NCBI GenBank assembly: GCA_026706595.1
Contig: JAPOYL010000011.1
Location: 146,946-210,945 of the forward strand
DNA length: 64,000 bases
Source: Gammaproteobacteria bacterium
GTDB taxonomy: Bacteria > Pseudomonadota > Gammaproteobacteria > UBA4575
Direction: 5' to 3'
Shown here: in pieces, positions 1,623-63,537 of the stretch
How positions within the stretch are numbered: the stretch's first letter is position 1
Layout of the letters: the number at the start of each line of letters is the position of its first letter
Made by a program: the position numbers and the translations under genes
Notes under the pieces: model-generated
The model's input: the letters and a program-made list of their open reading frames with translations, nothing else
Told to the model about the DNA's origin: nothing
Databases searched by the model: none

Positions 1623-2474
1623 ATGCAAACTGTTGCGACAGTGGCTGACTTGCGCCAGCAGCTTTCTTTGTGGAAGGCGCAGGGCGAGCGTATTGTGCTG
1701 GTGCCCACCATGGGAAACCTGCACGAGGGGCACCTCGCGCTGGTCAGGCATGCTGCCCGCTGTGGCAGTAAAATCGTGTGTACTATTTTCGTCAACAGCC
1801 TGCAGTTTGACCGTCAGGAGGACCTGGCTGCCTACCCGAGGACCCCCCGAGAAGACCTGCATGCCTTGCGCTGTGAGAATACCGACCTGGTGTTCATGCC
1901 GGAACATGCAGAAGTCTACGCCGAGCAGCACCGCGTTCAAAAAAGCCTGCCTGTGAATCCGCTGTACCGGCAGCTGTGCGGGAAGTATCGGCCAGGATTT
2001 TTTGACGGTGTCGCCGAGGTGGTAAGCCGGCTGTTCCACATGACAGACCCCGACGTGGCGGTATTCGGAGAGAAGGACTATCAGCAACTGCTCATCATCA
2101 AGCAACTGGTGAGGGATTTGGGGCTGGCTATTGAGATTGAGCAGGTGCCGACCCAGCGCGAGCATGACGGTCTGGCATTCAGTTCGCGCAATGCATACCT
2201 TGAGCCGCAGGAACGTGCCATGGCCCCGCAACTGTATGCCGAGCTGGTCCGTGTGGGCGAGCGGATCAAAAGCGGCCTGCGCACATTTTCGCAAATGGAA
2301 TCCCAGGCAACCGAGCGACTGCAACGGGCAGGATTTCGCCCGGATTACGTGGCCATCCGGGATGCCGAAACTCTCGAAAACGCCGCCTATGAAGCCGACA
2401 ACATCGTCATTCTGGCGGCTGCCTGGCTTGGAAAGGCACGGCTGATCGACAATATAGCGGTGCGGCCGGGCTGA
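1623..2474 (+). CDS. panC: Pantoate-beta-alanine ligase
   Basis: VPTMGNLHEGH, FGEKDYQQ, SSRN, RLIDN; ATG at 1623 chosen as start. Confidence 0.97.
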   Translation: MQTVATVADLRQQLSLWKAQGERIVLVPTMGNLHEGHLALVRHAARCGSKIVCTIFVNSLQFDRQEDLAAYPRTPREDLHALRCENTDLVFMPEHAEVYAEQHRVQKSLPVNPLYRQLCGKYRPGFFDGVAEVVSRLFHMTDPDVAVFGEKDYQQLLIIKQLVRDLGLAIEIEQVPTQREHDGLAFSSRNAYLEPQERAMAPQLYAELVRVGERIKSGLRTFSQMESQATERLQRAGFRPDYVAIRDAETLENAAYEADNIVILAAAWLGKARLIDNIAVRPG

Positions 2475-2570
2475 ATGAGCGGTCCGCACCCCCTGCCCAT
2501 CGCCTTCTCTTGCACAGGTGGGGTCTTGCCTTGCGGTGGATGATGTACTGGCCGTGTGGCAGAGAAGGTG

Positions 2571-4148
2571 ATGCGTAGACCTCTTCCAGAACTGGGTTCC
2601 TACCGGGCGCTTCGCTCCCATGCACAGGAAATCGAGAAACGCACCTTGCGTGACTGGTTTGCACAGGATCCTTTGCGGTTTGAGACGTTTTCACGGGAAC
2701 TGGAGCAATTCCTGTTTGATTTTTCCAGAAACCGCATTTGCGACAAGACGGTAGACAAGCTCCTCGACCTTTCTTCGGAATGCGAAGTCGAGTCCTGGCG
2801 TGACAGGATGTTTGCCGGCGAATCCATCAACCTGACGGAGAACCTGCCCGTCCAGCACACGGCACTCCGTGATCCGGGTCCCGCGTCCGGCGAGCCGGGA
2901 ATGTTGCACAGTCGGACACTGGAACGCATGGAGGTACTTGCCGAAGAAATCCACGAGCAGGGTTTCACGGATGTGGTCCATCTGGGTGCAGGGGGTTCTC
3001 AGACGGGCCCCCGGCTGGTATGTGATGCGTTCAGTGATGCTGCTCAGGCCGGCCTGAGCATGCATTTCGTAGCCAATGCGGATGCCACGGAAATCAACCG
3101 CGTGCTGAAGGGGCGGGAAGCAGATAACACGCTTTTCATCATCGCATCGAAAAGCTTCTCAACATCGGAAACCCTGGCCAATGCACAGGCCGCAAAAAAC
3201 TGGCTCTTGCAGAATGGCATCGCAGACCCAAGGATTGCACGGCATTTTGTTGCCGTGACCTCCATGCCCGAACGGGCCAGTGAATGGGGGATTCCGGAAT
3301 CCCGGGTGCTGCCGGTATGGGATTCGGTGGGCGGGCGCTTTTCAGTATGGTCTGCTGTCGGATTCGGTATCGTGCTCTACCTCGGCATGCCGGCATTCAG
3401 GCAACTGCTGCAGGGTGCCAGGGAGATGGATCGCCATTTCCGGACCGCTCCTCCAAGGCAGAATGTGCCGCTGCTGCTCGCCTTGCTGGGCATATGGAAT
3501 CAGCATTTCATGGGTACGGTTGCGCAGGTTGTCCTGCCGTATGATGCGCGCTTGCGCTACCTGCCGGGATATCTGCAGCAACTGGAGATGGAAAGCAACG
3601 GCAAGTGCGTGGACCGGGCCGGGCGCGCTCTGGGCGTGCCGGGTTCTGCCATCGTTTTCGGAGATATCGGCACGAACGCACAGCACGGGTTTTTCCAGTA
3701 TCTGCACCAGGGAAGCCATGTAGTGCACTGCGATTTCATCGGCGTAGTGCGGGCAGGGCACTCCAACCGCTCCCAGCATGAAATGCTGCTGTCCAACATG
3801 ATTGCACAGGCCCGGGCCCTGATGCATGGCCAGACACTGGAAGAGGCCCAGGCCCGAACCCAGACAGAGTCAGCCGAGCACAGGGTGTTTCCCGGCAACC
3901 GCACCAGCAACACGATTTTGCTCAGGGAGCTTACCCCGCATACCCTGGGTCAGTTACTGGCCCTATACGAACACAAGGTGTTTGTGGAGGGCATCGTCCT
4001 GAATATCAACTCATTTGATCAGCCAGGTGTCGAACTGGGGAAGAACCTGGCCGAATGCCTGCTCGAGAGCCTGCGGTCCAGAGATTTAGTGCAGGATTTC
4101 GACCCTGCAACGCGTGCGCTGCTGGATTACTACAGGAAACATGCCTGA
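2571..4148 (+). CDS. pgi: Glucose-6-phosphate isomerase
   Basis: IASKSFST, VGGRFSVWS, QLEMESNGK, FDQPGVELGK; start could be GTG 2556. Confidence 0.95.
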   Translation: MRRPLPELGSYRALRSHAQEIEKRTLRDWFAQDPLRFETFSRELEQFLFDFSRNRICDKTVDKLLDLSSECEVESWRDRMFAGESINLTENLPVQHTALRDPGPASGEPGMLHSRTLERMEVLAEEIHEQGFTDVVHLGAGGSQTGPRLVCDAFSDAAQAGLSMHFVANADATEINRVLKGREADNTLFIIASKSFSTSETLANAQAAKNWLLQNGIADPRIARHFVAVTSMPERASEWGIPESRVLPVWDSVGGRFSVWSAVGFGIVLYLGMPAFRQLLQGAREMDRHFRTAPPRQNVPLLLALLGIWNQHFMGTVAQVVLPYDARLRYLPGYLQQLEMESNGKCVDRAGRALGVPGSAIVFGDIGTNAQHGFFQYLHQGSHVVHCDFIGVVRAGHSNRSQHEMLLSNMIAQARALMHGQTLEEAQARTQTESAEHRVFPGNRTSNTILLRELTPHTLGQLLALYEHKVFVEGIVLNINSFDQPGVELGKNLAECLLESLRSRDLVQDFDPATRALLDYYRKHA

Positions 4149-4156
4149 GTCCCGTC

Positions 4157-5257
<1,101 letters not shown>

Positions 5258-5280
5258 CGTTAATTACGTATAATTTACCG

Positions 5281-6768
5281 ATGTCTTTCATCCCTGAAAA
5301 TATTTATCTGGTCAGGCAGGTCCGCGAAATGGACCGCATGGCGATCGGGGAATGCGGGATTCCCGGCTACACGCTGATGCAGCGAGCAGGTCAGGCTGCC
5401 TTTGACCTGGTCCGGGCCAGCTGGCCGGATGCCAAGGATTTTGTGGTGGTGACTGGGCCCGGGAACAATGGCGGAGACGGTTATGTCATTGCCCGCCTGG
5501 CGCGTGCAGCCGGGATGCGGGCAAGCGTTTTGCAGTCAGGTGATCACTCCGGGCTCACCGGTGATGCCGGGCGTGCCCGCGACGAATATCTGGAGCACGG
5601 TGGTCAATGCTCGGTCTTTACCGGACAGCAGGCACTGCCGGGGTGCGATCTTGTCATCGATGCCTTACTGGGTTCCGGGTTGACCCGGGCCGTTGAGGGG
5701 GAGTTTGCGGCTGTGATACAGGCTATGAATGCCCAACCCGCTCCAGTCCTGAGCGTGGATGTTCCCTCGGGGCTCGATGCCGACTGTGGCATGGCCCTGG
5801 GAGAAGCAGTGCTTGCACAGGCCACCATCACCTTTGTCGGCATGAAGCTGGGCTTGATCACCGGGGCTGGGCGCCGTCACGCCGGCAGCATCTTTTTCGA
5901 CGATTTGCAGATTCCGGATGAAGTGTTCCAGGCGATTCCGGCCTGCTGTCATAGAGTGGCCCTGGAAGGTCTGCATGAGTTGCTCGGGGTGCGCCACCCG
6001 GATGCCCACAAGGGCGATTTCGGACATGTGCTTGTGGTCGGGGGCAATGCGGGCATGGCCGGGTCTGTCAGACTGGCAGCTCAAGCTGCTGCACGGGTTG
6101 GCAGCGGACTGGTATCGGTGGCCACGGTGCCACAGCATGCCAGCCAGATCAGTGCTGCCTGTCCCGAGGTGATGGCGCACGGCGTGCGCAATCGCAGAGA
6201 ACTTGATGCGCTGATCCACCGTGCCACGGTCGTGGCAATCGGGCCCGGGCTCGGGCAGGATCCGTGGGCCAGGGAACTGTTTGCCCGGGTTCTGGAACTG
6301 GATCTCCCGACAGTCGTGGACGCCGATGCATTGAATTTGCTCGCACTCGATCCGGTGCACAAAGAATCCTGGGTTCTGACCCCGCACCCCGGGGAAGCCG
6401 CCCGGCTGTCGAAGGTGGGCACCCGGGAAATCCAGCAGAACCGCCTTGGACGGGTACAGGCCTTGCAGGAGCAATACGGCGGTGCCTGCGTTCTGAAAGG
6501 CTGTGGCACGCTGGTGGCTGGCGAGGACCGGGTGTCCGTGTGTACGGCGGGAAATCCCGGCATGGCCTCGGGAGGCATGGGGGATGTACTGACAGGGGTC
6601 ATTGCAGGGCTGCTCGCTCAGGGGCTGGAGCTGTACGATGCGGCACGCTTCGGCGTGCAACTGCATGCCCAAGGTGCGGACATGGCCGCGCGCGAAGGCC
6701 AGCGTGGTCTGCTGGCCAGCGATTTGTTTTTACCGCTTCACACCCTGGTCAATGCGGCCTGTGACTGA
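5281..6768 (+). CDS. nnr: Bifunctional NAD(P)H-hydrate epimerase/dehydratase
   Basis: GPGNNGGDG, DVPSG, HKGDFG, TPHPGEAARL, GGMGDVLTG; ATG at 5281. Confidence 0.95.
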   Translation: MSFIPENIYLVRQVREMDRMAIGECGIPGYTLMQRAGQAAFDLVRASWPDAKDFVVVTGPGNNGGDGYVIARLARAAGMRASVLQSGDHSGLTGDAGRARDEYLEHGGQCSVFTGQQALPGCDLVIDALLGSGLTRAVEGEFAAVIQAMNAQPAPVLSVDVPSGLDADCGMALGEAVLAQATITFVGMKLGLITGAGRRHAGSIFFDDLQIPDEVFQAIPACCHRVALEGLHELLGVRHPDAHKGDFGHVLVVGGNAGMAGSVRLAAQAAARVGSGLVSVATVPQHASQISAACPEVMAHGVRNRRELDALIHRATVVAIGPGLGQDPWARELFARVLELDLPTVVDADALNLLALDPVHKESWVLTPHPGEAARLSKVGTREIQQNRLGRVQALQEQYGGACVLKGCGTLVAGEDRVSVCTAGNPGMASGGMGDVLTGVIAGLLAQGLELYDAARFGVQLHAQGADMAAREGQRGLLASDLFLPLHTLVNAACD

Positions 6769-6773
6769 CCCAC

Positions 6774-7217
6774 ATGTATCTGGAGAATGAAACATCGACG
6801 CTTGGGTTTGGTGCCAGCGTGGCCCGTCTCAGTTACCCCCCGCTGGTCATACACCTGCGTGGAGACCTGGGCACGGGCAAGACCACGTTTGCGCGCGGCT
6901 TCATTCGTGCCCTCGGGCATTCCGGCCGGGTAAAAAGCCCGACATTTTCCCTTCAGGAAAGCTATGTGCTTGAGCAGGCAGCACTTTTTCATTTCGATCT
7001 GTACCGGATACAGGACCCGGCCGAGCTTGAGTTTATCGGTATTCGCGATGCCGCAGGCGAAGCCGATACCATCTGCCTGATCGAATGGCCGGAGCGAGGG
7101 GCAGGGGAGATTCCAGAGGCCGATGTCGAACTTGTATTCCGGTATGCGGGGGAGGGTCGCGAGGTCGATTCCCATGGCAGGTCGGCCAAAGGTCGCTCAG
7201 TTATCAAGCTGTTGTAA
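6774..7217 (+). CDS. tsaE: tRNA threonylcarbamoyladenosine biosynthesis ATPase
   Basis: GDLGTGKTT, VKSPTF, HFDLYR, IEWPE. Confidence 0.96.
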   Translation: MYLENETSTLGFGASVARLSYPPLVIHLRGDLGTGKTTFARGFIRALGHSGRVKSPTFSLQESYVLEQAALFHFDLYRIQDPAELEFIGIRDAAGEADTICLIEWPERGAGEIPEADVELVFRYAGEGREVDSHGRSAKGRSVIKLL

Positions 7218-7386
7218 TACAGGACTCTAACTTAGGCAGCTATGCTAATAATTCCATTATAAAAATCACTTGTAGTGACGTAAAATCTTTGCCACACTTT
7301 CACCATGGTTTTATAACCAGGGTTGTATTTTCTCAGTGCGACGTCAGACAGGCATGGTTTTGCGGGCAGGCTGGTTCGGTGCGGAC

Positions 7387-8706
7387 ATGTACCGGACAGG
7401 GATCTGCGCGCTGCTGGCACTGCTTGTGTTCCCGGCGCTGACGGCGGCCGGGGTATCCAAAATCGAGGATGTCCGGATTGCAGACCGAGGCGACAGTACA
7501 CGCATCGTGTTTGATCTGTCTTCTCCTGCGAAGCACAAGGTCTTCGTACTTTCGAACCCGCACCGGGTAGTCCTGGACATCGAGCGCTGCAAGGCGAACG
7601 GCAAGCTCAGTTCTGTCAAGGCCAAAAGCACTTTGCTGAAAAGTCTGCGCTATGCACAAAAGTCACCCCAGAAGCTGCGCGTAGTGCTGGACATGCAAAC
7701 TGCGGTGGTACCGAAAAGCTGGCTGCTGGGCCCTGGCAATGGAAAAGGACACCGTCTGGTACTCGACCTGTCCTCGGAGGTGAAACAACCGAGTGTCAAG
7801 CCCGTACTCGCCATGCCGGATACTTCGCACAGAAGGCGGGATGCCATCATCGCGATTGATGCCGGGCATGGTGGCAAGGACCCGGGGGCCATCGGCCGCA
7901 AGGGCACTTACGAAAAGGTGATCGTACTGTCCATTGCAAAACGGCTCAAAAACCTCATTGACAAGGAAAGGGGCATGCGCGCCGTGATGATCCGCAACGG
8001 CGACACCTACGTGCCCTTGCGAACGCGGATCAGAAAGGCGAGCCGGCTGAACGCGGACATGTTTATTTCCATCCATGCGGATGCATCGGTGAACCGCAAT
8101 GCGCGGGGTTCGTCCGTGTATGTCTTGTCCCAGCGAGGCGCCACCAGCGAGGCGGCCCGGATCCTGGCACAACGTGAAAATGCGGCGGACAAGATCGGCG
8201 GGGTCAGCCTGGATGACAAGGACAAGGTACTCAAGTCAGTGCTGGTCGACTTGTCCCAGACGGCTACGATTGACGCCAGTATCGATCTTGCCGAAGACAT
8301 CCTTCACGAACTCGGTGCAATCGGGAATCTGTTGCACAACCGCGTGGAGCAGGCCGGATTCGCAGTGTTGAAATCGCCCGACATCCCTTCCGTGCTGGTG
8401 GAGACAGCCTTTATATCAAACCCCCAGGAAGAGCAGCGTTTGCGGACCCGAGCCCACCAGCAGAAGCTGGCGGCAGCCATTCTGAAAGGTATACGAAGGT
8501 ACCTGAAGGATCATGCCCAAAGTGACATGCTCCTGGCCGCCTCCGGCAGTGGCAGCAGGCACGTGATACGAAGAGGTGAGACCCTTTCCACCATTGCCAA
8601 TTACTACCAGATCGGAGTCGGTGAACTGCGCAGGGCCAATGCCCTCAAGTCAGACAAGATTCGTGCAGGGCAGGTGCTGATGATCCCGGGGTCCACCGGA
8701 ACCTAG
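7387..8706 (+). CDS. amiB: N-acetylmuramoyl-L-alanine amidase (AMIN + Amidase_3 + LysM)
   Basis: IDAGHGGKDPGA, SIHAD, LKSPDIPSVLVETAFISN, C-terminal LysM; follows tsaE; start uncertain (7336-7387). Confidence 0.9.
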   Translation: MYRTGICALLALLVFPALTAAGVSKIEDVRIADRGDSTRIVFDLSSPAKHKVFVLSNPHRVVLDIERCKANGKLSSVKAKSTLLKSLRYAQKSPQKLRVVLDMQTAVVPKSWLLGPGNGKGHRLVLDLSSEVKQPSVKPVLAMPDTSHRRRDAIIAIDAGHGGKDPGAIGRKGTYEKVIVLSIAKRLKNLIDKERGMRAVMIRNGDTYVPLRTRIRKASRLNADMFISIHADASVNRNARGSSVYVLSQRGATSEAARILAQRENAADKIGGVSLDDKDKVLKSVLVDLSQTATIDASIDLAEDILHELGAIGNLLHNRVEQAGFAVLKSPDIPSVLVETAFISNPQEEQRLRTRAHQQKLAAAILKGIRRYLKDHAQSDMLLAASGSGSRHVIRRGETLSTIANYYQIGVGELRRANALKSDKIRAGQVLMIPGSTGT

Positions 8707-50104: not shown

Positions 50105-52990
50105 CTAGAACCGCACCCCGACATTGAGCCGTGCGGCATAGGCCTGGCTGTCGGCGTTGGCGCGGTGCCACGCCAGGGCGGACTCGAGCACCCACGGCCC
50201 GTACTCCCAGAGCAGCCCTGCCGACAGGTGCACGCGGTTCTGCTCGGGGGTGGCCTCAAGCGTCTCGCCGGAGACCGTGGCGCGGGTGTCGGTATCACGA
50301 AACGCGTGCTCCAGGTGCAGTGCACCCCACAGCACGCCCTGGCCCCCTGCCGCCCCATAGGTGCGATCGGCCATCAGCCCCAGGCTGGCGCGGTAGCGCT
50401 CGGTCTGCGGGAACGACACCCGCGCGCCCACGGCATCGGTGAAGCGCTCGACCGAGAGCCGGGTGTGGTGCAGGCGCAGATGCGGGCTCCAGTGCACGCC
50501 CGCGCCCCAGTGCAGGCGATGCCCGGTCTCGACCCGCAGGTCCATGCGCTCGGCCTCCACCCCCGAGACCAGCCGCCCGACGGTGTCCGAGGAGGCCTCC
50601 AGGGTGTAGTCCGTCCAGGCGGCCCGCCCGGTGGCATAGCTGCCGTTGCCATGGTGATAGTGCGCATCGAGCGACAGGCCCTTGCCGCGGGCACGGAGGT
50701 CGCCGCCCCGGACCGGTGAGGACACGTCCGCCGTTGCCGAGACGTGGTGCACCGAGGCACGGACCCGGTGGTGGCGGCCCTGCAGGATCTGGCCACCGGC
50801 CCGCACGACGAGGTGCTCGGCATCAAAGTGCGCGCCTACGGTGGAGCGTGCCGGGTCGTGCTCGCCGGTGCTGGCGGACAGTTCCATCCAGACCGGCAGG
50901 TCGGGGGTGCGCAGGCTGTGGAGGGCCCCGGCCTGCGTGTGCAGGCCGAGCAGGAACTCCGGCAGCGCCTCGTACAGCGCCGCACGCGGCGCATACGTCT
51001 CCACCAGTACCGGACCCGCAGGCTCCGCAGGTTCGAACTCGGGTATAGACCCGGATCCGGGTTCCGGCGCAGGTTCGGGCGGACCGGGATCGGGCGGCGG
51101 AGGTGGCGGAGGTGGCGGAGGTGATGGCGTGGTGCAGTTGGGCGGGGTGCCCACCATACCGGCCGGGCACCGGGCTACCATCGCTACCTCCATGAAGTCC
51201 TCTGCATTGAAGTCGCGGTCGGCGATCACGCCCGCGGCCCGCGCGCTGAAGGTCCACGGGTCCGTGCTGCGGTCACTCACCTTCACGCCTTGCGCCTGCA
51301 TCGTCACATCCCATGCCCCGTTGCGGGCCACCGCATTCGCCACCACGCCCGTATCCGCATCGTGAAGCTTCTCGCCATTGACGTAAATGGCCGTGCCGCC
51401 GCCATCGTTGAGGATCCAGCCCCCGCCCAGGGCCGCGGCCAGCCAGTTGCCGGTCCCCGCCATCTGCGCCCCGCCGGGGTTCAGGTCCACCCGCAGCTTG
51501 GGCGCGATCGCCGCCATGCTCTCGTCGATGCCGATGGTCTGCGGATCGTCTGCCACCGCGGGTACGGTGCCCGTGGCCAGGATGGCGATGTCCGAACCGG
51601 ACGTGATGCTGCCTGAAGGCCCGAGGATGACCCGCCCGCCGCCCGCCAGGAACACCCCTTCGGCCGCACTCGTGATCGCACCGTTCACCGTCACCGTCTG
51701 GCGGCGGTAGCCGTTGGCATCCAGGCCCGCGACACGACCCGGGGCATCGCCGCTGAGCCTGCCCATCTGCACCCCCCGGGCGCCCGCACCGCTGACGGTG
51801 ATCGGGCCGCGGAGCGCAATGTCGATATCCCCGGTCCCTTCATGCAGCCCGTAGATGCCGTGGGAATATGCCCCAGCTGTGGTAATGGAGCCATCCTGTA
51901 CATCGATATCAACATTACCGGTACCCGAATTGTATCCTTGAATGCCATAGGAAGCGGTCTGTCCCTGATCATTGGTGGCAGTGCTTTCCGTGCGGATTGT
52001 GCTGTCCCGCACATCGATAATGACGTCACCCGAAACCGTGGCCAGTCCTTCGCGTCCAGTGTAAATGCCGTAACTGCCTCTGCCCGTGGTGACAATGGTG
52101 CTGCTGTCCTTCACTGTGGTTCGGGCATCACCCCGACCCACGGCACGAGTGTTCCAGATTCCCCGTCCTGCCGACGTGATCGTGCTGCCCTGGAGGCTCA
52201 ATGACGAGTCAAATTCCTCAGCATCGGTGGTTTGGCCTTGCTGCTGCTGGTAGACACCGATGCGCGATGCATTGATGGCGGTGCCAGCCAACAGGTCGAT
52301 TGTGACATTGCCCTTCACGTAGTGTTCGACAGCGATCCCATCCCCCTCGGTATCCCCCTGCGCACGGATCGCGCTCGCAGACTCCAAGGTGACCTCAACA
52401 TTCCCCTCGCCATCATGTGTGATGCGAATCCCCCGGGACCGCCTGCCGCTGACATCGATGATTGCCCTCTCCCTCAGTTTGACCTCGATATCCCCGCTGC
52501 CGGGAGTGGAAAACGTACCATGGTGGGCAAAGATTCCATGGGCTTGCAAGCCGGTGGTGGTGATGGTGCTTTCCGACGGGTTTTCCATACCGTTTGATGA
52601 GACATCGATGGTGATATCGCCCATGCCCGTATGCTCGGCTTGGATGCCGTATGCGGAGCTGCCCGTGGTGGCAATGGTGCTTATGGCCTGTGGGGTTTCC
52701 GTACCGCCAGAGGTGATATTGATGGTGATGTCACCGGTGCCCTCATGCTTGCCATGAATTCCAGATACATTATTGGCCATCGTGTCAATGTCGACATTTT
52801 CTCCGTTAATGCTGATGCTGTCGGTGGAAGAAGCCCCCTTCGTGCATTTGAGCCAATACGTTCCGCTGCTTGGCACAGCGTCGGAATCGCTGCACACCTG
52901 AACCTCCGATGCCTGCATGTCACCCAGGGCAAGCATGGTGACCCCGACCAAGATCCGCATGGCAGGACGTATCCTGCAGGCGTGGGTCAT
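50105..52990 (-). CDS. Autotransporter (type Va) with beta-helical passenger and Pro-rich linker
   Basis: Repeats ITTTG..A.GI.A.H.G.GDI.I, poly-Pro linker, YAPRAALYEALP, C-terminal barrel ending VGVRF; true start may be 53043 across a C9 tract. Confidence 0.88.
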   Translation of the reverse strand: MTHACRIRPAMRILVGVTMLALGDMQASEVQVCSDSDAVPSSGTYWLKCTKGASSTDSISINGENVDIDTMANNVSGIHGKHEGTGDITINITSGGTETPQAISTIATTGSSAYGIQAEHTGMGDITIDVSSNGMENPSESTITTTGLQAHGIFAHHGTFSTPGSGDIEVKLRERAIIDVSGRRSRGIRITHDGEGNVEVTLESASAIRAQGDTEGDGIAVEHYVKGNVTIDLLAGTAINASRIGVYQQQQGQTTDAEEFDSSLSLQGSTITSAGRGIWNTRAVGRGDARTTVKDSSTIVTTGRGSYGIYTGREGLATVSGDVIIDVRDSTIRTESTATNDQGQTASYGIQGYNSGTGNVDIDVQDGSITTAGAYSHGIYGLHEGTGDIDIALRGPITVSGAGARGVQMGRLSGDAPGRVAGLDANGYRRQTVTVNGAITSAAEGVFLAGGGRVILGPSGSITSGSDIAILATGTVPAVADDPQTIGIDESMAAIAPKLRVDLNPGGAQMAGTGNWLAAALGGGWILNDGGGTAIYVNGEKLHDADTGVVANAVARNGAWDVTMQAQGVKVSDRSTDPWTFSARAAGVIADRDFNAEDFMEVAMVARCPAGMVGTPPNCTTPSPPPPPPPPPPDPGPPEPAPEPGSGSIPEFEPAEPAGPVLVETYAPRAALYEALPEFLLGLHTQAGALHSLRTPDLPVWMELSASTGEHDPARSTVGAHFDAEHLVVRAGGQILQGRHHRVRASVHHVSATADVSSPVRGGDLRARGKGLSLDAHYHHGNGSYATGRAAWTDYTLEASSDTVGRLVSGVEAERMDLRVETGHRLHWGAGVHWSPHLRLHHTRLSVERFTDAVGARVSFPQTERYRASLGLMADRTYGAAGGQGVLWGALHLEHAFRDTDTRATVSGETLEATPEQNRVHLSAGLLWEYGPWVLESALAWHRANADSQAYAARLNVGVRF

Positions 52991-54150: not shown

Positions 54151-55641
54151 ATGAATATGAGAAGTTTTCCAATTAAAATGGCCTCGGTGTGCCTGATGGC
54201 TATTTCACTCTTTATGTATGGCTGTGGCGGCGGTGGCGGCGGCAGTGACCCAGAACCAGGTGGCGAAGGAACTGGAGCTGAAAATGGAGAAAGTACAGCT
54301 ATGCAGTGCCCTGAAGGACAAATGGGCACATACCCAGACTGTATGCCAGCAGGTCCTACGGCAGCCGAAAGGGATGCAGAAGGAAAAGCGCTGGATAGTG
54401 CCATAAGTAAGGCTGTAAATAATACAGGGGCATTCCAAGATACAACGGATGCTACGATCACAGGGATTGTTACCAGTGGGATGCCTGCTAGCAATTCAAA
54501 GTTCGGGAAGTCCGATGAAGCACCCCACAGCATAGATGGTCGGAACGTCAATGTTTATGAAAGATCAAACGCGGGCCCGGCATCTACGGACCTAGTTGTG
54601 CTCTACAACGATAAGGCCGCAGATAAACCGACAGCATATGGAACCGTGTATCCAAATGCGGACAGTTCGACCATCGAGGGTATCAGTAGCATTAGTAGCG
54701 GTGTCATCACCTTTACTGCTGACACTGCGGCATTCTCAAGCAAGATCAAGGGCAATTTCTTTGACAGCATAGGGAATAGCCAACAGGGCAATACTGTTGC
54801 GGACAACGCCGAGACTGCAACCATAAAGGAACATGAACATAAAGGGATCTTTGACACGGTACCTGGGAAGTTCACATGTGGTGACGGTACATCCACTTGT
54901 AGCGCCAGTCGCACCGCTGCTGGTGTGCTGTCACTGTCAGCAGGGTGGACATTCACCCCGGACCCACAGGAAGCAGGGGCTGCACAGTACACCGTACCGG
55001 TAGCAGATGCTGACTACCTGCGCTTTGGTTTCTGGAAAAATACAGGAAAGAACGACAAGGGTGAGACCACCTTTACCGTTGACCCGCTATATGGTGGAAC
55101 AATGCCGATCAACACAAGTGAGCTCAGCCCCGCTCAGGGCACCTTGTATACCGGCACTGCCAAGTATGTTGGTAAGGCTACCGGCAAGTATGTCAGGAAG
55201 ACATTTACCTCGGATAATGATCCTGAGCACTACTTCCCGGGACAGTTCACAGCTGATGCGAGCCTGACTGCCTCCTTTGGAGGCGGCGGTATTGCGGCGG
55301 ACTCCCAATATGGTGTTGTAGGTAAAATCAGCAATTTCAAGGACGGAGATACAGCCATAGACAATTCCTGGACATTGGAGTTACAACGCGCTGGCTTTGG
55401 TTCTGGAGAGGATTCCCTTCATGCTACCAGTGGTGTGTTTTCTGGGATTACCGAGGGTGACAAAGCGCTTGAAGGCAACTGGGAAGGCCAATTTTTTGGA
55501 TCCGCACCTCAGCTAGATGCTGACACGGAAACTGATGGTAATCAGCAGGCCTTTCCTACAGGTATTGCTGGACAGTTCGATGGCCGCTTCACAAATGGAA
55601 GTGTATTGGGCTCCTTTGGAGCAGCACATCAAGACAACTAA
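54151..55641 (+). CDS. Lipoprotein with TbpB-like handle/barrel domains
   Basis: Lipobox FMYGC then Gly-rich linker; GTAKYVGKATGKY, GQFTADASLTASFG, GNWEGQFFG, VLGSFGA. Confidence 0.82.
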   Translation: MNMRSFPIKMASVCLMAISLFMYGCGGGGGGSDPEPGGEGTGAENGESTAMQCPEGQMGTYPDCMPAGPTAAERDAEGKALDSAISKAVNNTGAFQDTTDATITGIVTSGMPASNSKFGKSDEAPHSIDGRNVNVYERSNAGPASTDLVVLYNDKAADKPTAYGTVYPNADSSTIEGISSISSGVITFTADTAAFSSKIKGNFFDSIGNSQQGNTVADNAETATIKEHEHKGIFDTVPGKFTCGDGTSTCSASRTAAGVLSLSAGWTFTPDPQEAGAAQYTVPVADADYLRFGFWKNTGKNDKGETTFTVDPLYGGTMPINTSELSPAQGTLYTGTAKYVGKATGKYVRKTFTSDNDPEHYFPGQFTADASLTASFGGGGIAADSQYGVVGKISNFKDGDTAIDNSWTLELQRAGFGSGEDSLHATSGVFSGITEGDKALEGNWEGQFFGSAPQLDADTETDGNQQAFPTGIAGQFDGRFTNGSVLGSFGAAHQDN

Positions 55642-56512: not shown

Positions 56513-57010
56513 ATGACTGTCCCCATGCTTCGAAAAGGATTTGCTGTGGTCGTCCTGACAATCCTGTCCGTGGCACCTGTCCAGGCGGTGAGTGAACCGC
56601 CCGAACCGGCACCCATCACCTCCCGGATCACGGAAGCTCGCACCTTGATCCTCTCCGGTCGCTTCGGTGAAGCCTTGACACGGCTGCGCCCCGTGGCTAA
56701 GGCGTATCCTGCCAATACGGACATCCATTTCCTTTTGGCCCTGTCGGCCATTGAGAGCTCCAGAATGGCGAAAAGCCCACAGGTGCAAATGGCCTTGCTG
56801 GATGAGGCGATCGCCGCACTCCACGCCATCCTGGTCGACCAGCCAGGCCTAGTGCGTGTGCGCCTGGAACTGGCACGTGCTTTCTTCTACAAGAGGGAAG
56901 ACCGACTGGCACGCATGCACTTCGAGCAGGTGTTGGCAGGCCAACCACCCGGGCCTGTAGTCTCCAACGTGCAGCGATTCCTTGCCAAAATCCGTGCCCG
57001 GCGCAACTGA
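56513..57010 (+). pseudogene. Truncated Slam (surface lipoprotein assembly modifier) / TPR protein
   Basis: Signal peptide and TPRs, P.LVRVRLELARAFF...D..A..HFE.VL....P..V..N..RFL..IR.R; stops where the beta-barrel should begin. Confidence 0.72.
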
Positions 57011-57885: not shown

Positions 57886-58071
57886 TCACCGCTTGGGGTG
57901 CACGCATCTTCTCATAGCTATGAATAGGTGCTCCATACGCTCACGCTCAAAAGTAAATCTGTCGCACCCGTAGAGCTGGCCCACAGCACGGCCGAGTGCC
58001 TGATGTGTCCGGCGCAGGTCCGGCGGCATTAGATCGGGATCATAAAGAACTGCAAGCGTAGTACTTGGATG
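57886..58071 (-). pseudogene. 3' remnant of MmeI-type (type IIL) R-M gene
   Basis: TLAVLYDPDLMPPDLRRTHQALGRAVGQLY...ERERMEHLF matches the MmeI-family C-terminus. Confidence 0.75.
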
Positions 58072-58407
58072 CGGCTGTACGGGCACGTGCTTTGCTTCAT
58101 GACACCAGGCAGAGTACTCCAATTCATACAGTGTGGGAGGCAGTTCGTGAGTTAGAAGATTACTCATTGTAGAACTTTGGTTGCTACACCCGAAGCCAGG
58201 ATATGCCGTGTCGGAAAGTGTTTCAGTTTAGAGATTTCCGCAATTCTAGAAACGGGTTTCCGCAGTACTAGCCTGGCTCCTTGTACAGTCTTGTACCTTG
58301 GCATTATCTGCCAGAAAAAAAACGGACCCTGCAGGGCATGTAAGGCCCTAATGCAATCACATTAGAAGATCAATTGACGGAACGCTTCGGCCTGCTGCCG
58401 GGAAGTA

Positions 58408-58971
58408 TCAGTCCATAGGAATCCGAATGACCACGCCGCCCATCACATCATCCACGCTGAGATCCCGGCGCGGGGAATCCTTGTGGTTGTTGTGGCACTG
58501 GACACAGGCCTCCACGACTGCGTAATCGGGGTACACCGCACTGAAATAGCGCTCACCGCCGAGTTCCTCTTCCCCGTAGAAGTTTTCTCCCGGGTTATCG
58601 GCAACATGCTCAAGCCCCTGCCGCTCCAGGTCGGTGGCAGGGCCGTTCTTCTTGTTGATGGGATGCAGGGACAGCAGCGAATAGGAAAAATCTTCCGTGT
58701 TGTCCAGCACTTCCTCGGCCACGAATCGAAACATCTGTGAGGGCAGGGGCAGGCCGGCATCGTCTTCAAAGTGCTCTGAGGCAATCAGGACTTCCTCGTC
58801 CACGGTGAGTCGCTGGACCACGACACGGGTATAGATCTCGCGGTTGGCTGACATCACTTGGTACAGCATGTCCGTGACTTTCGCATAGGGGACACCCTCG
58901 GAGGAGCCCGCAGTTGTCATGGCCACGCCAACGCTCCACAGGAACCCGACCATTACTGCAATTCGCTTCAT
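58408..58971 (-). CDS. DUF3365 / Tll0287-like c-type heme protein
   Basis: Signal peptide, LPLP..MFR, YSLLS..PIN..N.P, single CVQCH, GGVVIRIP; GGGAG RBS. Confidence 0.85.
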   Translation of the reverse strand: MKRIAVMVGFLWSVGVAMTTAGSSEGVPYAKVTDMLYQVMSANREIYTRVVVQRLTVDEEVLIASEHFEDDAGLPLPSQMFRFVAEEVLDNTEDFSYSLLSLHPINKKNGPATDLERQGLEHVADNPGENFYGEEELGGERYFSAVYPDYAVVEACVQCHNNHKDSPRRDLSVDDVMGGVVIRIPMD

Positions 58972-59062
58972 GTTTTTTCTCCCGTGTGGTACACACTGGC
59001 ATTGTCGCTGAAATTTGTGCACGTCTTCAAGGTGTGCAGGCCACACATGGCACATATTTGCA

Positions 59063-60550
59063 TCAGTTCTCCGGTGCATCGGGGTTCGACCGGCTGCGCG
59101 CAATGGCCCAGTCGATGCTTTGCACGTGAACCCCGGGCTTGCCGGTAAAGTTCTTTCGGATAAGCCCGGGATCGGCAAGCGCATCCAGCGAAAAGCCGAG
59201 GCTGTGACAATCCAGGCAGACGCTCCGGATCATTTTCTCGTTGGGCCGCAGGTTGTCGTTCTGGTTGTGAGTGGTGCGCACCTGCCCGCGGTGTTCGAGT
59301 TTTGACATGTGGCAGCTCGCACAGCTGACGCCACTGCCGGGCGGGGCTTCACCGGCCCGCTCCAGTTTCCAGAGCATATGGTGGGGACTGTCGAAATAGC
59401 TGCGGGTGTGCAGATCATCGTGGCAGGATGCGCAGGCCTCGACCTCGGCACGGGTGGTATCCAGGGCATGCTCACCGTGGCAGCTGCCGCAGTCGATGGC
59501 CAAGGCGGGGTCCGCATCGGCACGCATGGGCAGGCGTGCTTCTCCCACGGTCATCCAGGCAGGCACGGCCGGATCGCTGAGCCAGCGGCTCATCGACACC
59601 GGCATGACCTGGGAGAGCCCGAGCCTGGCAAGGCTGCGCTGTGCATTTCTGGGCTTTGCGATGCCGGGGTGCTGGCGCATGCCGTGGCGTCCCATGACAA
59701 ATGTCTTGGCCTGCGGCTTGTGACACGCCATGCACACGTTCATTGGCGGGACATCGATCCAGTGTGCCAGCGCCTGTGTTTTCGGGGCATCCTCGGCGAG
59801 ATCTGTCGCATGGCAGCCGGTGCAGTTGACCCCGGCCCGTGCATGGCCGGAGTCTGCCCAGTGCTCCAGCACGTTTGGGACGGCCAGCGCAGCCGACGGT
59901 GCAATGGCATCGCCTGGCTTCAGGGCCTTGTCTGTGGATACCGGCCGGGCACGGTAGCGCGCAGCCAACCCGTGCACAACTGGGCGTGCCGGCTCAGGCT
60001 GCCCGGCATGTCCGAGCAGGAAGTCCTCAAAGAGCGCGCGGTTATCGTGGAAGTTGTGACAGCCTGCCGTCGCACAGGTCTCAAAGCCGAGGCCTGCGTG
60101 ACTGGCCCGGGTCGTGCGGATATCCTGCTCGCCTTTTGAGTGGCACGCCACGCAATAGTCCATCGCAACGGTGACCGCGCTGGCCCGCGTGATCTCCGGG
60201 CGGTGCTCGATGTGACAGGTGGTACACCGGCGGGCATCCAGCCTGTCCCAGTACTCCGCCATGCGCGGGTTGCGAAAGCGCTTGCGCGAGTGGCTGTCCT
60301 TGGCCGCCTTCAGCTCGTTCTCGTGACACTTCCTGCAGTTCTTGTTCAGCGTCTTTTCTGCAACCTCAGCATCTGCAAAGATGGAGCTTCCATGGCAGGT
60401 CTCACAGGCCATCTCCAGCTGGTGATGGGCATGCGTGGTTTGGCCGATCAACAGCATCCGCCGGTCGCCGCCCACGGTCATCGTCACGGCCATGTACACG
60501 GCACCCAAGAGGGTCACTGCCAGCACAAGCTTCAGGAGTCTGCCAAACAC
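59063..60550 (-). CDS. Multiheme c-type cytochrome (10 CxxCH + 1 CX4CH)
   Basis: N-terminal TM/signal; CETCH, CRKCH, CTTCH, CVACH, CATAGCH, CTGCH, CMACH, CGSCH, CASCH x2, CLDCH. Confidence 0.92.
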   Translation of the reverse strand: MFGRLLKLVLAVTLLGAVYMAVTMTVGGDRRMLLIGQTTHAHHQLEMACETCHGSSIFADAEVAEKTLNKNCRKCHENELKAAKDSHSRKRFRNPRMAEYWDRLDARRCTTCHIEHRPEITRASAVTVAMDYCVACHSKGEQDIRTTRASHAGLGFETCATAGCHNFHDNRALFEDFLLGHAGQPEPARPVVHGLAARYRARPVSTDKALKPGDAIAPSAALAVPNVLEHWADSGHARAGVNCTGCHATDLAEDAPKTQALAHWIDVPPMNVCMACHKPQAKTFVMGRHGMRQHPGIAKPRNAQRSLARLGLSQVMPVSMSRWLSDPAVPAWMTVGEARLPMRADADPALAIDCGSCHGEHALDTTRAEVEACASCHDDLHTRSYFDSPHHMLWKLERAGEAPPGSGVSCASCHMSKLEHRGQVRTTHNQNDNLRPNEKMIRSVCLDCHSLGFSLDALADPGLIRKNFTGKPGVHVQSIDWAIARSRSNPDAPEN

Positions 60551-60560
60551 GTGATGCTCC

Positions 60561-61742
60561 CTAGTAGAGATACACGGTCAAAATGTGCACGATCAGCAGG
60601 GCGGGCAGCGGGCACAGGGCCAGGGCGTGCACCCAGATCAGGACGCGCCGCGCTGCAAAGACCCGGCTCAGGCTGATCTGCTTAATCCGGGGAGCGCCTC
60701 CGACCACAACCCCGGTCAGTGCACCCGAAAGCAGCACGGTGAGGTAGGTGGCCATGAGCGCGGCATTCAGGTTATCGCCTAGGCGAAACCCCGTGTGCAT
60801 GAACAGAACGAATACGCAGGCGATGCCCAGGGCGAGGTGCGAAAGCCTCCAGCGGTGCGAACCCGAGAGCCAGACCAGCAGCTGCTTTTTGAGCGCAAGG
60901 GCGATCATCAGGCCGGTCAGGCTGAGCGCGAGCAGCAGGTAGCCGCTGAACTGCTTCCAGGAATCGTCAAACCAGAGCTGCGCAGGAAGCGAAGGGCCAT
61001 AGTGGTCCGGAATGCCGATGCCCGGGACCAGCAGGGTGGCGATTACGGCCGCACTGGCCACAAGGGCCAGGGTCAGCGTCAACTGCTTGAAGTGCGCCGC
61101 CTGGGCACGCGCCGCACGGATGATTTGGTCCTGGATCTCGCTGATGGTGCTGGTGAGTTCGCGACCGATCAGGTCCATCCTGCGCAGCAGTTCGAGTCTC
61201 GAAGCGGTCTGTTTGGTTTCCCACTCGGGAAACAGGTCGGGAAGGATCTGGCAGGCATCCACCAAGCTGATCAGGGCCACATCCCGCGGGTCCGGGATCT
61301 CATCGGAAACGACGTCCTCGATGCGCGACTTGACCGCCTGCAGGGGGGCCTCATCCAGGGTGGAGTAGCACACGGAGCGGAAGATCCCCAGAAAGCGGGT
61401 GTGCTGCCTTTCCAGGATACGGCGATTGACCAGGCTGTCCAGTGCCTGTTCACGGATCAGAGCGGCATCCTCGGTGGCCAGCACCCGTATCCAGGTCGGG
61501 GTATCGGTAATGTCCGTACGCACAGAAATTTTCTCCAGGACACGATCCAGCATGGGATTGCCCGTGGGCGTAGGGTCTGTGATTACGAGCGCCTGAAGGT
61601 CCGTATCGATCCGGAAGTCAAAGGCAAGGTCCATCAGGATAGCGCCCGCCAGGGCACATTCGAAGGCGTGTTCCTTGACGGGAAGAAACAGGCCCTCCTC
61701 GTCACCTAGCAGGAGCAGGAGTTCCTCTGTAAATGTCAACAT
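60561..61742 (-). CDS. GPP34/GOLPH3-like domain fused to a putative di-heme b membrane domain
   Basis: N-terminus LTFTEELLLL...ALAGAILMDLA...DPTPTG.P.LD...PDPRDVALISL; C-terminal TM helices with two H-x13-H pairs. Confidence 0.8.
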   Translation of the reverse strand: MLTFTEELLLLLGDEEGLFLPVKEHAFECALAGAILMDLAFDFRIDTDLQALVITDPTPTGNPMLDRVLEKISVRTDITDTPTWIRVLATEDAALIREQALDSLVNRRILERQHTRFLGIFRSVCYSTLDEAPLQAVKSRIEDVVSDEIPDPRDVALISLVDACQILPDLFPEWETKQTASRLELLRRMDLIGRELTSTISEIQDQIIRAARAQAAHFKQLTLTLALVASAAVIATLLVPGIGIPDHYGPSLPAQLWFDDSWKQFSGYLLLALSLTGLMIALALKKQLLVWLSGSHRWRLSHLALGIACVFVLFMHTGFRLGDNLNAALMATYLTVLLSGALTGVVVGGAPRIKQISLSRVFAARRVLIWVHALALCPLPALLIVHILTVYLY

Positions 61743-62088: not shown

Positions 62089-63537
62089 ATGAATAACAAT
62101 AAAGCAGGATTTTCATTACTATCTTCGACCATATTTATACTCGTTGCCGTACTCGCCTTGTCCGCCTGTGGTGGTGGAGGTGGCAGTAGCGAGGATGTGC
62201 CGCGATCATCCGACTACAATACTCTGAATACTGTCACAGGCGTTTTGAATTCCGGCTCGGTCAACTCCCAGTCTATACTGAGCAACTCGAATACTGCACA
62301 AGCGATCCGCAGTGCCATCGGTGTGGCCTCGGGGGTAAACCCCCCTGCTCATAACGGTGCACCCACAGGCATAACGGCGACAAGGGGGGCAGTGAACCAG
62401 GCCGACATCACCTTCACTCCAAGTCCTAGCACGCCGTGGATTCGCTCCGGTACGGCCCCCGGGGCTTCAACGGTTCCCTGGTTTGAGGGGTCGAAGTGGA
62501 CCCGCAAGCGTCCAGTGGTGGTGGACGATCCGCCCTCGAACCCTGACGTGCCGGAGACGGTCTGGGTCTGGACGGATATCGATGGGCCGAGTGCGGAGCA
62601 CGTCACTGTGGGCAACCCCCTGGACAGGGACACCAATAGTGATGAAAGCCCCGATGCCATCGACATTACAGCGGCCCGTTTGAACCTTGTGTCGAATATC
62701 GGGCGTGCCCCGGAAGATCCGCGTGAGGACGATGCCCAATCCGTGAATCCGGTTGACCGTGGTGTATTTGGTGAGGACAGGACCTTCAATCAGGGCCACG
62801 AAATTTCCGGGCGCTTCAATGGTGCATATGGTCTTTACAGTTGCGTTAGCACAACCTGCTCGATCAATATCAGCAGCACTCCTGGCGTGGGTATCACGGA
62901 GATGAGGGGCTGGGTGTTCACGCCGAAGTCCGAGACCGGGGCGGGGGGGGGCACGCGCCCGCCGCAGATTCTTGTCCCGGACAACGACTATCAGTATTTC
63001 GGCATCTGGCTGCGTGGCCCGGACCCGTCCGCCGATGACGGGTTCGAGGTTGCGACCTTCTCCGGCGGCTCACAGCCGTTTACTGGGACAGTTACCGCGC
63101 TCTCCGGCCGGGCGTTCTATTCGGGTCCGGTCGCCGGACAATATGTGCAGGACAGTGGTAGCAGTTCGAGCACTGGCCTGTTTACGGCGAAGGCGCAATT
63201 GCAGGCCACCTTCGGGGGGACACCTGGAGTCACTGGCACGCTGTCGGATTTCCGGGACGGTAGTCGCGATTTGGGCTGGAGCCTGACCCTTCAACGGGCA
63301 CCGGTTTCAGGTGTCAATTTCTCGGGCGTGAGCAAGGGTCTAAGCCGGGCCGGGACCTATCGAGGCACGACTGGCTACGAGGACAAAGGCAATGACAATT
63401 TCGGTCGCTGGCAGGGACAGTTCAACGGTAACCGGAATGACGGATATCCGGACGGAATCTCAGGTCGTTTCAACGCCAGATTCGATGATGGCCTGGCAGT
63501 TGGCGCTTTCGGTGCGAGAAAAACGCCTGTTCCTTGA
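62089..63537 (+). CDS. Lipoprotein with TbpB-like handle/barrel domains
   Basis: Lipobox LSAC then GGGGGS; GRAFYSGPVAGQY, GLFTAKAQLQATFG, GRWQGQF.G, AVGAFGA; paralog of 54151-55641. Confidence 0.82.
   Translation: MNNNKAGFSLLSSTIFILVAVLALSACGGGGGSSEDVPRSSDYNTLNTVTGVLNSGSVNSQSILSNSNTAQAIRSAIGVASGVNPPAHNGAPTGITATRGAVNQADITFTPSPSTPWIRSGTAPGASTVPWFEGSKWTRKRPVVVDDPPSNPDVPETVWVWTDIDGPSAEHVTVGNPLDRDTNSDESPDAIDITAARLNLVSNIGRAPEDPREDDAQSVNPVDRGVFGEDRTFNQGHEISGRFNGAYGLYSCVSTTCSINISSTPGVGITEMRGWVFTPKSETGAGGGTRPPQILVPDNDYQYFGIWLRGPDPSADDGFEVATFSGGSQPFTGTVTALSGRAFYSGPVAGQYVQDSGSSSSTGLFTAKAQLQATFGGTPGVTGTLSDFRDGSRDLGWSLTLQRAPVSGVNFSGVSKGLSRAGTYRGTTGYEDKGNDNFGRWQGQFNGNRNDGYPDGISGRFNARFDDGLAVGAFGARKTPVP

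Follow-up and report, generated by a model that had tools for sequence, protein, structure and literature searches.

Why should a domain of the GPP34 family, whose fold is that of GOLPH3 and Vps74, sit at the inner end of what looks like an electron-conducting membrane protein? The question is raised by three genes at 58408-61742 of a 64,000-nucleotide stretch of DNA (the window; positions 146,946 to 210,945 of contig JAPOYL010000011.1, assembly GCA_026706595.1) from a Gammaproteobacteria bacterium of the GTDB lineage UBA4575. Gene 1 encodes a fusion of a GPP34 domain to a module of five transmembrane (TM) helices, gene 2 an 11-heme cytochrome c, and gene 3 a mono-heme protein of the DUF3365 family. 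The cassette is classed here as a transmembrane b-heme/multiheme-c electron conduit, which is a known kind of system, with the GPP34 head as the variant. Its anatomy and its origin, by exchange of a reductase head for GPP34, can be described with high confidence, and the work done by the new head only tentatively.

The three genes are co-oriented on the minus strand with gaps of 10 and 91 nt, much as an initial annotation of the window had described them (10 and about 90 bp). Gene 1 (60561-61742) is an open reading frame (ORF) of 393 aa, the start of which is taken as the ATG at 61742 because its homologues begin MLTF. Its stop codon (60561-60563, minus strand) overlaps a GGAG-type ribosome-binding site, which by reading of the sequence stands 7 nt ahead of the start of gene 2, and the 10-nt spacer between this stop and the GTG start of gene 2 occupies 60551-60560 (minus strand). 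Gene 2 (59063-60550, minus strand) encodes 495 aa, and gene 3 (58408-58971, minus strand) 187 aa. A GC-rich palindrome with a run of eight T on the 3' side of gene 3 (58315-58350, minus strand) is terminator-like by eye, weak, and unlisted by a consensus scan.

The GPP34 domain of gene 1

The N-terminal part of gene 1 (residues 1-215; 61098-61742, minus strand), predicted to be cytoplasmic, belongs to the GPP34 family, as the initial annotation had proposed from its motifs. Pfam GPP34 (PF05719) matches residues 6-202 with an E value of 5.5e-37 (128.2 bits against a cut-off of 29.1), and a profile of the family searched against the PDB finds GOLPH3 (3kn1) at E 1e-15. The same fold is returned by Foldseek with the AlphaFold2 model of gene 1, which matches GOLPH3 structures 9qpq_B (E 1.4e-7) and 3kn1 (E 4.8e-7, template modeling score 0.68 by target) and the Vps74 structure 2zih, with E values ranging to 4e-4. 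The full-length model has a mean predicted local distance difference test (pLDDT) score of 74.5, reaching about 90 across the GPP34 part. It contains the beta-hairpin of the GOLPH3 fold (strands 110-117 and 121-128) and one unbroken helix, residues 191-238, by which the last helix of GPP34 runs into TM1. The N-terminus of the protein is without a signal peptide.

In GOLPH3 the pocket for phosphatidylinositol 4-phosphate (PtdIns4P) is formed by W81, R90, R171 and R174, according to the part of the source available (PMC2806290). By profile alignment to GOLPH3, one of these four residues is kept in gene 1, R174 being R97, with W81 replaced by K23 and R171 by A94, both at variable positions, and R90 by A32, a position that is at least 90% Ala. 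The domain is also without a recognizable redox-cofactor site. Four features, namely the motifs RIDTD and MDLIGRE and the residues W84 and C164, are each present in at least 28 of 30 GPP34 domains of the short, P450-fused and TM-fused kinds, and their being common to all three suggests a single molecular function, one that accompanies redox proteins. C29 and C164 were considered as a possible metal site and rejected, C29 being present in 20 of the 30 domains and C164 in 29 (the other row is cut short).

The membrane module

Residues 216-393 (60564-61097, minus strand) form the five-helix module, for which bis-His ligation of two b hemes is predicted. The initial annotation had counted about five TM helices and two His pairs at i/i+14, and this reading holds: the pairs are H302/H316 on TM3 (codons 60837-60839 and 60795-60797) and H372/H386 on TM5 (codons 60627-60629 and 60585-60587, all on the minus strand), each with H-x13-H spacing, conserved, and placed on two parallel helices. 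All four His are invariant in the 32 full-length GPP34-type homologues (32/32) and in 105 of 105 TM-module sequences drawn from the whole family, across which the invariant positions are G267, H302, H316, G318, G322, G340, H372 and H386. A model of the domain alone, built with these 105 relatives, has five TM helices, a pLDDT of 94.1 and a predicted template modeling score of 0.88. Since the TM2-3 and TM4-5 loops are rich in Lys and Arg, these loops and the N-terminus are placed in the cytoplasm; TM3 and TM5 are therefore parallel, with one pair of His near each face, so that H302 and H372 would lie on the cytoplasmic side and H316 and H386 on the periplasmic side. Reductase-headed relatives of gene 1, described below, must likewise have their N-terminus inside. 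The GPP34-type modules carry mid-membrane Cys residues on the heme-binding helices (C309 in 100%, C377 in 83%), and modules of the NirB type, that is, those with a NirB-like reductase head, have Trp at position 377 in 95% of cases. No second copy of the module was found in the source genome.

The label of a ferric-reductase/NOX-type domain, given in the initial annotation, is carried by the His pattern. The Ferric_reduct Pfam family gives no match to gene 1 at E up to 1, and residues 216-393 match no Pfam family at its cut-off. NOX, STEAP and MsrQ are all missing from the top 50 structural matches listed by Foldseek or VIA-align, an absence from a list that is no exclusion. Membership of DUF4405 (PF14358) was rejected, the match on TM2-TM3 scoring 14.5 bits against a cut-off of 26.7 (E 0.053). 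When a 100-row profile of the module was compared by hhalign with five groups of DUF4405-matching proteins, the probability was at most 4.1%; those groups came from a genome search with PF14358 that gave a mixed set, including FdnI-like and cytochrome-b-like proteins, and was used solely for this comparison.

Foldseek with the model of the TM module alone gives no match at E up to 0.001, and FdnI is the sole heme protein among the weak Foldseek matches of the full gene 1 model. Against 48,161 chains, VIA-align puts talin-type bundles at the head of its list for the TM-only model. The best membrane protein is E. coli CybB (5oc0_A; Z 10.8, rmsd 2.9 Å over 127 residues, TM2-TM5), followed by a designed two-heme bundle (Z 9.9) and HyaC (4gd3_A, Z 8.8), all of these being values that helical bundles reach by chance, which happens below roughly 13; no fold family is assigned for that reason.

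The cytochromes and a predicted complex of gene 2 with the membrane module

An 11-heme cytochrome and a DUF3365 heme protein in the same operon had been read from the sequence at the outset, and both identifications are confirmed by motif counts and Pfam. Gene 2 contains 10 CXXCH motifs and one CX4CH, a count shared by 30 of 31 homologues (the exception is a partial frame), and an alignment of 27 sequences shows no variation at the 11 His of the motifs or at 11 further His positions. The number of further His fits bis-His ligation of all hemes, which makes the protein look like a wire and not like an enzyme; such ligation of every heme would follow from these counts, as distinct from geometry. 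Several cytochrome c3/c7 models of Pfam match the protein (Cytochrom_c3_2 at E 5.7e-16), and a single TM helix lies at its N-terminus (residues about 5-25), where no signal-peptidase site is evident. The C-terminal half shows partial profile matches to NrfA and to octaheme nitrite reductases, the NrfA structure 2j7a matching at E 8e-12 over positions 207-277. A nitrite reductase of the NrfA or octaheme type was nevertheless rejected, as there is no CXXCK, all 11 motifs end in H, and 11 more His are invariant; the "nitrite reductase" names given automatically in the Atlas are not to be trusted.

Gene 3 is a predicted periplasmic protein of the Tll0287-like/DUF3365 family (sCache_heme; PF11845, E 2.4e-19, 70.6 bits against a cut-off of 24.1). 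Its start resembles a signal peptide, and its only Cys residues are those of a single CXXCH (CVQCH) near the C-terminus; in the absence of a third Cys, the Cys/His heme ligation of Tll0287 is impossible here. The source genome has cytochrome c maturation genes. A recent study holds that sCache_heme domains are mostly sensor inputs and that stand-alone sCache_heme proteins are of the redox type, and the portion of it available makes no mention of the present gene context (bioRxiv 10.64898/2026.02.01.703092). Papers on Idiomarina and Geobacter that mention DUF3365 proved irrelevant to the cassette.

Co-folding of the TM module, the gene 2 protein and two hemes supports binding between the products of genes 1 and 2. 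Three runs and three controls were made, with our own alignments supplied, and the interface score ipSAE (interaction prediction score from aligned errors) for module and cytochrome is 0.72 (0.71-0.73 between runs), the best of the three controls giving 0.00. The ipSAE mark is reached by 58 of 80 solved complexes and by 2 of 110 mismatched pairs, counts that apply roughly here, given the alignments supplied and the hemes folded along. The runs share at least 93% of contacts, with a partner pLDDT of at least 77. In the predicted interface the N-terminal helix of the cytochrome (residues 2-24) lies on TM5 (module residues 370-393), and cytochrome residues 31-36, 49 and 53, around the first heme motif, are placed above the periplasmic loops 243-249 and 322-328.

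Conservation of the fusion

A search with gene 1 found 618 proteins at E up to 0.001, of which 121, the query included, were listed. Among these listed matches, 119 of the 121 homologues cover at least 90% of gene 1, with identities down to 48% and on contigs of up to 6 Mb, so the fusion extends well beyond one assembly. Homologues that bear a name are called "GPP34 family phosphoprotein" and come from Defluviicoccus, Rhodospirillales, Rhodospirillaceae and metagenome-assembled genomes (MAGs) of Gammaproteobacteria. The identical three-gene order recurs in seven other loci, six of them genome loci (77-91% identity) and one a metagenome locus (67%), complete chromosomes included.

An artefact, such as a chimera of the assembly, two genes joined by a frameshift or a pseudogene in decay, might be suspected in a cassette that lies amid remnants (the C-terminal fragment of an MmeI-type gene and a truncated Slam-type TPR gene) and whose G+C content is slightly above that of its flanks (0.59-0.65 against 0.50-0.58). 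It is given next to no weight, since the homologue set refutes it: the full architecture is present in nearly every listed homologue, the functional residues are invariant, and the gene order is that of the seven other loci.

The parent cassette and the origin of the GPP34 head

A full-library search with the TM domain gave 489 cluster representatives (E up to 0.001), the best 150 of which were classified. At least two H-x13-H motifs are present in the last 140 aa of 146 of the 150. NirB-like heads account for 98, GPP34 for five and other heads for 47, the last being mostly short and including several visibly cut reductase or GPP34 proteins. The initial annotation had named an NAD(P)/FAD oxidoreductase of the NirB kind as the usual N-terminus of such proteins, and the 98 NirB-like heads among these representatives agree with it. 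NirB-type examples carry the Pfam domains Pyr_redox_2, Rubredoxin_C and Fer2_BFD directly ahead of the TM module. A metagenome protein of 951 aa (P0249) with the same module has instead an EF-hand pair followed by Fer2_BFD, FAD_binding_6 and NAD_binding_1, a head that is reminiscent of NOX5 and DUOX and would be a calcium-regulated reductase of the FNR type. Judged by domain content, then, every identifiable head other than GPP34 is a predicted NAD(P)H-flavin reductase with a membrane-adjacent [2Fe-2S] domain. Seventeen rows of 165-199 aa are dispersed in the TM-module tree and may be stand-alone genes, split genes or truncated calls.

The gene order of head-TM protein, 11-heme cytochrome and DUF3365 protein is common to the GPP34 and NirB types. 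Of 38 TM-module loci surveyed, eight have GPP34 heads, 26 NirB heads and four are cut upstream. In 34 of them the next gene downstream is that of the 11-heme cytochrome (the remaining four stop at a contig edge), and the DUF3365 gene follows in all 24 of the loci with at least 600 nt beyond the multiheme gene, displaced by 0.9-2.4 kb in three close relatives. Two whole genomes of the same class have a NirB-type protein followed at once by a gene 2 homologue of 474-479 aa. No conserved gene was found beyond the three, the flanks differing among the three loci compared (L013, L001 and L002). Between this parent cassette and that of the window, the TM modules share 33-47% identity (tblastn) as well as the four His and the G/W/P core, the 11-heme cytochromes 36-58% and the DUF3365 proteins 43-65%, and the genes stand in the same order. 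The two differ in the head, which in the parent is FAD/NAD(P)H-binding with a [2Fe-2S] domain where the window has GPP34, and in TM residues proper to the GPP34 type, namely C309 and, where the parent mostly has Trp, C377. Gene 1 carries GPP34 as its sole head, without the NAD(P)H/FAD and BFD portion of the parent, and the source genome contains no close homologue of a NirB-type head, the best match having 29% identity over part of a 786-aa frame. The head of the parent is an NAD(P)H-flavin reductase with a terminal BFD [2Fe-2S] domain, so that electrons of NAD(P)H are probably sent outward to hemes in the periplasm, by a NOX-like logic. Literature searches found no paper on a cassette of a NirB-like reductase-BFD::TM fusion with 11-heme and DUF3365 genes.

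Three trees, all of them unrooted quick searches, place the GPP34 forms together. In the multiheme tree (30 rows, with one partial row dropped and rows of fewer than 420 residues left out), the eight GPP34-type rows form one clade with a Shimodaira-Hasegawa approximate likelihood ratio support of 99, sister to two NirB-type rows (100), and this clade falls inside the NirB diversity under midpoint rooting only. A single branch (94) of the TM-module tree (115 rows) sets apart all 35 rows of the GPP34 type, together with a truncated GPP34 fragment. In the tree of GPP34 domains (52 rows), one branch (85) likewise separates the 32 fused domains, whose sisters (94) are short GPP34 proteins of 213-218 aa, with the P450-fused domains further off; in keeping with this, the GPP34 domain of the window is 42-59% identical to short GPP34 and 39-41% identical to P450-fused GPP34. 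The trees fit a single replacement of the head, in line with the exchange of an input module for GPP34 put forward in the initial annotation. Given 98 NirB-like against five GPP34 representatives, the simplest reading of the sequences is that a short GPP34 protein replaced the reductase head once, which would set the direction of the swap as from NirB to GPP34. The GPP34-headed lineage of the window includes Alpha- and Gammaproteobacteria.

Proposed function of the cassette

Genes 1-3 would form one membrane complex, a transmembrane heme wire. The five-helix bundle of gene 1 would hold two b hemes stacked across the membrane, the one bound by H302 and H372 near the cytoplasm and the one bound by H316 and H386 near the periplasm. 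Gene 2 would continue the wire as an 11-heme c chain, with its TM helix packed on TM5 and its first heme over the periplasmic loops, and gene 3 would stand at the end of the chain as a periplasmic mono-heme sCache_heme protein. With no change at either b-heme site, electrons would still cross the membrane. On its inner side they would no longer meet NAD(P)H but either quinone from the pool or a protein that GPP34 holds. The GPP34 domain itself would act as a non-catalytic docking or regulatory cap, perhaps a protein-binding module associated with partner switches of the STAS/PP2C kind, as suggested by the gene context of its closest relatives. To this explanation as a whole, a heme-wire complex with a GPP34 cap, we give a probability of about one half. 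The part that makes GPP34 a non-catalytic cap with quinone or partner coupling is put forward tentatively and held somewhat less firmly than the whole. Docking to, or gating by, a lipid or partner protein, which the initial annotation had suggested, is conceivable, and the direction of electron flow, like everything said of what GPP34 binds, is conjectural.

Leads on the role of GPP34 point in three directions. The first is toward redox enzymes: the source genome encodes a GPP34-P450 protein of 668 aa (locus L008, 109-2115, minus strand; G000:C16, ~14.5-15.2 kb), with E values of 9.9e-35 for GPP34 and 4.7e-34 for p450, and fusions to P450 (656/663), Rieske and PotA domains are reported in the part available of a study of sponge symbionts (PMC11706023). 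The second is toward partner switches. A STAS and/or SpoIIE-PP2C gene lies within about 1 kb in 12 of 26 loci of short GPP34, nearest relatives of the fused domain included, and the fusions fall in a clade of 45 rows that includes 13 short ones, eight of these being linked to STAS/PP2C. On another contig of the source genome (G000:C27:25000-36000; L098, ORFs 2261-3418, 3434-3853, 5101-7305, 7310-7660 and 7855-8190) there is a set with a response-regulator PP2C, an RsbW-like kinase, a solute-binding protein, a sensor histidine kinase and two tandem STAS genes; no sigma factor gene stands beside this set, and no free GPP34 was found in the source genome. One of the two STAS proteins is 55% identical to a STAS encoded directly upstream of a short GPP34. 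The STAS pair is present in five of five related cassette-bearing genomes, and of two NirB-type genomes one has none and one a single weak match. The link to partner switches is taken here as a lead and not as support. The third lead is toward quinone, by way of the nearest structural look-alikes of the module, CybB and FdnI/HyaC, which have a quinone site beside the inner heme.

Several points weigh against the explanation given above. All structural evidence comes from predicted models, heme b binding is deduced, and the matches of the TM-module fold (CybB, Z 10.8) lie inside the chance range for helical bundles. That the NirB head is ancestral rests on its much greater diversity, the trees being unrooted. 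A quinone site in the GPP34 type would be new, since the parent is fed by a [2Fe-2S] domain and needs none, and nothing seen in the GPP34 type demonstrates one. A STAS, PP2C or kinase gene occurs in none of eight GPP34-TM loci, with flanks of 5-8 kb covered, and the STAS pair in five of five genomes is not independent evidence, as the five are closely related. Among more distant fusions, GPP34 is joined to redox enzymes (P450 here; P450 and Rieske in the available part of PMC11706023), and this fits a redox-partner role at least as well as signaling.

Such a role would be played if GPP34 recruited a soluble donor, such as ferredoxin, flavodoxin or a free reductase, so that the export function of the parent was kept with a detachable input. 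GPP34 does occupy the exact position of the reductase-BFD head, it is fused elsewhere to enzymes in need of a donor (P450 in the source genome; P450 and Rieske in the same portion of PMC11706023), and its conserved motifs are shared across these fusion types. We nevertheless consider this unlikely: the cassette has no linked gene for a candidate donor, its flanks differ between loci, the source genome lacks a close relative of the NirB-type head, and the closest relatives of the GPP34 domain are found in signaling and not in redox contexts. Those same relatives lend something to a second alternative, in which the cassette is a transmembrane redox-signal transducer, its periplasmic and b hemes reporting the redox state of the periplasm across the membrane and its GPP34 domain altering the binding of STAS/RsbW-type proteins, with no metabolic current. 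The single continuous helix from GPP34 into TM1 would suit a transducer, as would a source genome with a sigma-less partner-switch set and no free GPP34, and sCache_heme domains are, by the available account, mostly sensor inputs (bioRxiv 10.64898/2026.02.01.703092). Stand-alone sCache_heme proteins, however, behave as redox proteins and not as sensors in that account. An 11-heme wire would be a costly sensor, and the GPP34-TM loci are without partner-switch genes of their own. We know of no precedent for signaling by transmembrane electron transfer to GPP34, which also counts against the transducer, and its probability is put as low as that of a donor dock. An electron-moving receptor, in which the Cache heme, the 11-heme chain and the b hemes would lead GPP34 to bind or release STAS/RsbW-type proteins, is likewise doubtful; if it were true, sigma-less partner switches would have in bacterial GPP34 the output or target that they have seemed to lack, and the cassette would be the first transmembrane "electron-wire" sensor.

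A secreted or host-directed effector that binds PtdIns4P, the role proposed for the GPP34 family of sponge symbionts in the part of the study available (PMC11706023), is very improbable for gene 1. The genome is small and symbiont-like (1.56 Mb assembled at 92% completeness), and its relatives are of about 2 Mb, one of them with a sponge-style MAG label. The domain is, on the other hand, covalently fixed to a five-helix inner-membrane module and preceded by no signal peptide, one of the four pocket residues described for GOLPH3 is kept (PMC2806290, as available), and named homologues come from Defluviicoccus, Rhodospirillales and other Proteobacteria. It is this topology and the lost lipid pocket that make the effector idea misfit the gene 1 protein. 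The heme wire with a GPP34 cap keeps the preference stated above.

Comparison with known systems

NOX enzymes, ferric reductases (FRE) and NOX5 hold two b hemes within a six-helix bundle, by a His pair on each of the parallel helices TM3 and TM5, and pass electrons to O2 or Fe(III). The module of gene 1 shares the two His pairs on parallel TM3 and TM5; its parent family is flavin/NAD(P)H-fed, and one relative has, like NOX5, an EF-hand and FNR-type head. It differs in having a bundle of five helices and not six, in a multiheme cytochrome c as its probable acceptor, and in a parent-family reductase that is N-terminal and works via a [2Fe-2S] domain. In CybB and HyaC/FdnI, electrons on the periplasmic side are linked to a site for quinone that lies close to the cytoplasmic heme. 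CybB (E. coli superoxide oxidase, 5oc0) is the best look-alike among solved membrane proteins, with a Z of 10.8 that may be chance, but no sequence relationship to CybB, HyaC or FdnI was detected, and the His ligands of the window's module are distributed differently from theirs, 2+2. The DUF4405, MsrQ-like and PepSY-like proteins, which are small and bacterial, bind heme b through four central His and so transfer electrons across the membrane in which they sit, and their partners, by the part of the source available, are flavinylated proteins and not multiheme cytochromes (PMC11334425, mSystems 2024). DUF4405 shares with the module a helix of the form W-x2-H-x13-H and the weak Pfam match on TM2-TM3. 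UetJ of Tenderiales was also considered and is set apart by description only, the uet gene list, as far as the source is available, having no reductase, TM module or DUF3365 gene.

The nearest published relatives of the fusion are GPP34_L and GPP34_S of sponge symbionts, which have in common with gene 1 the motifs of GPP34 and the placing of the same Pfam family at the N-terminus of a heme protein (PMC11706023, Microbiome 2025;13:4, cited from the portion available). The partner in GPP34_L is a P450, whereas in the window it is a membrane di-heme b module within a multiheme operon. In that study architectures were sorted by Pfam, and the word "transmembrane" is absent from the part available; because of this sorting, the form found in the window would presumably count there as a short GPP34. 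Literature searches found no paper on the GPP34-TM architecture, which within their reach bears out its description as new in the initial annotation; the supplements of PMC11706023 may list such proteins.

These findings point to a large uncharacterized family (489 representatives of the TM module at E up to 0.001) in which an NAD(P)H reductase would feed two b hemes and an 11-heme cytochrome for NOX-like export. The GPP34 variant is a natural experiment within it, the enzymatic head having been exchanged for a domain without a known cofactor, and the variant persists to about 48% identity with every heme ligand kept. It also bears on the role of bacterial GPP34, which is here, by the predicted topology, fixed at the inner face of the membrane, with its lipid pocket lost, in place of a redox head. 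This contrasts with the published idea of a secreted PtdIns4P-binding effector of sponge symbionts, the closest relatives of the domain being short GPP34 proteins encoded near STAS/PP2C genes.

Genomic neighborhood

Just downstream of the cassette, a 93-aa ORF (57886-58167, minus strand) matches only the C-terminal domain of MmeI-type restriction-modification enzymes (E 2.9e-15) and is remnant-like. On either side of the cassette stands a lipoprotein-like gene without a Pfam match (54151-55641 and 62089-63537, both plus strand), the two having similar Gly-rich ends, and between them a 165-aa fragment (56513-57010, plus strand) carries Slam-type TPR repeats (PF24575, below cut-off). The two lipoprotein-like genes and this fragment may be a decayed surface-lipoprotein export locus. 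In one related chromosome (locus L001, 1883-5626, minus strand), a 1247-aa ORF lies 2.3 kb upstream of the cassette, with an N-terminus that is Cas9-like by eye only. Further along the window, an autotransporter of 961 aa (50105-52990, minus strand) has a beta-domain recognized at E 2.3e-18, and its passenger reaches a G+C content of 0.71 against 0.51-0.59 in the window otherwise.

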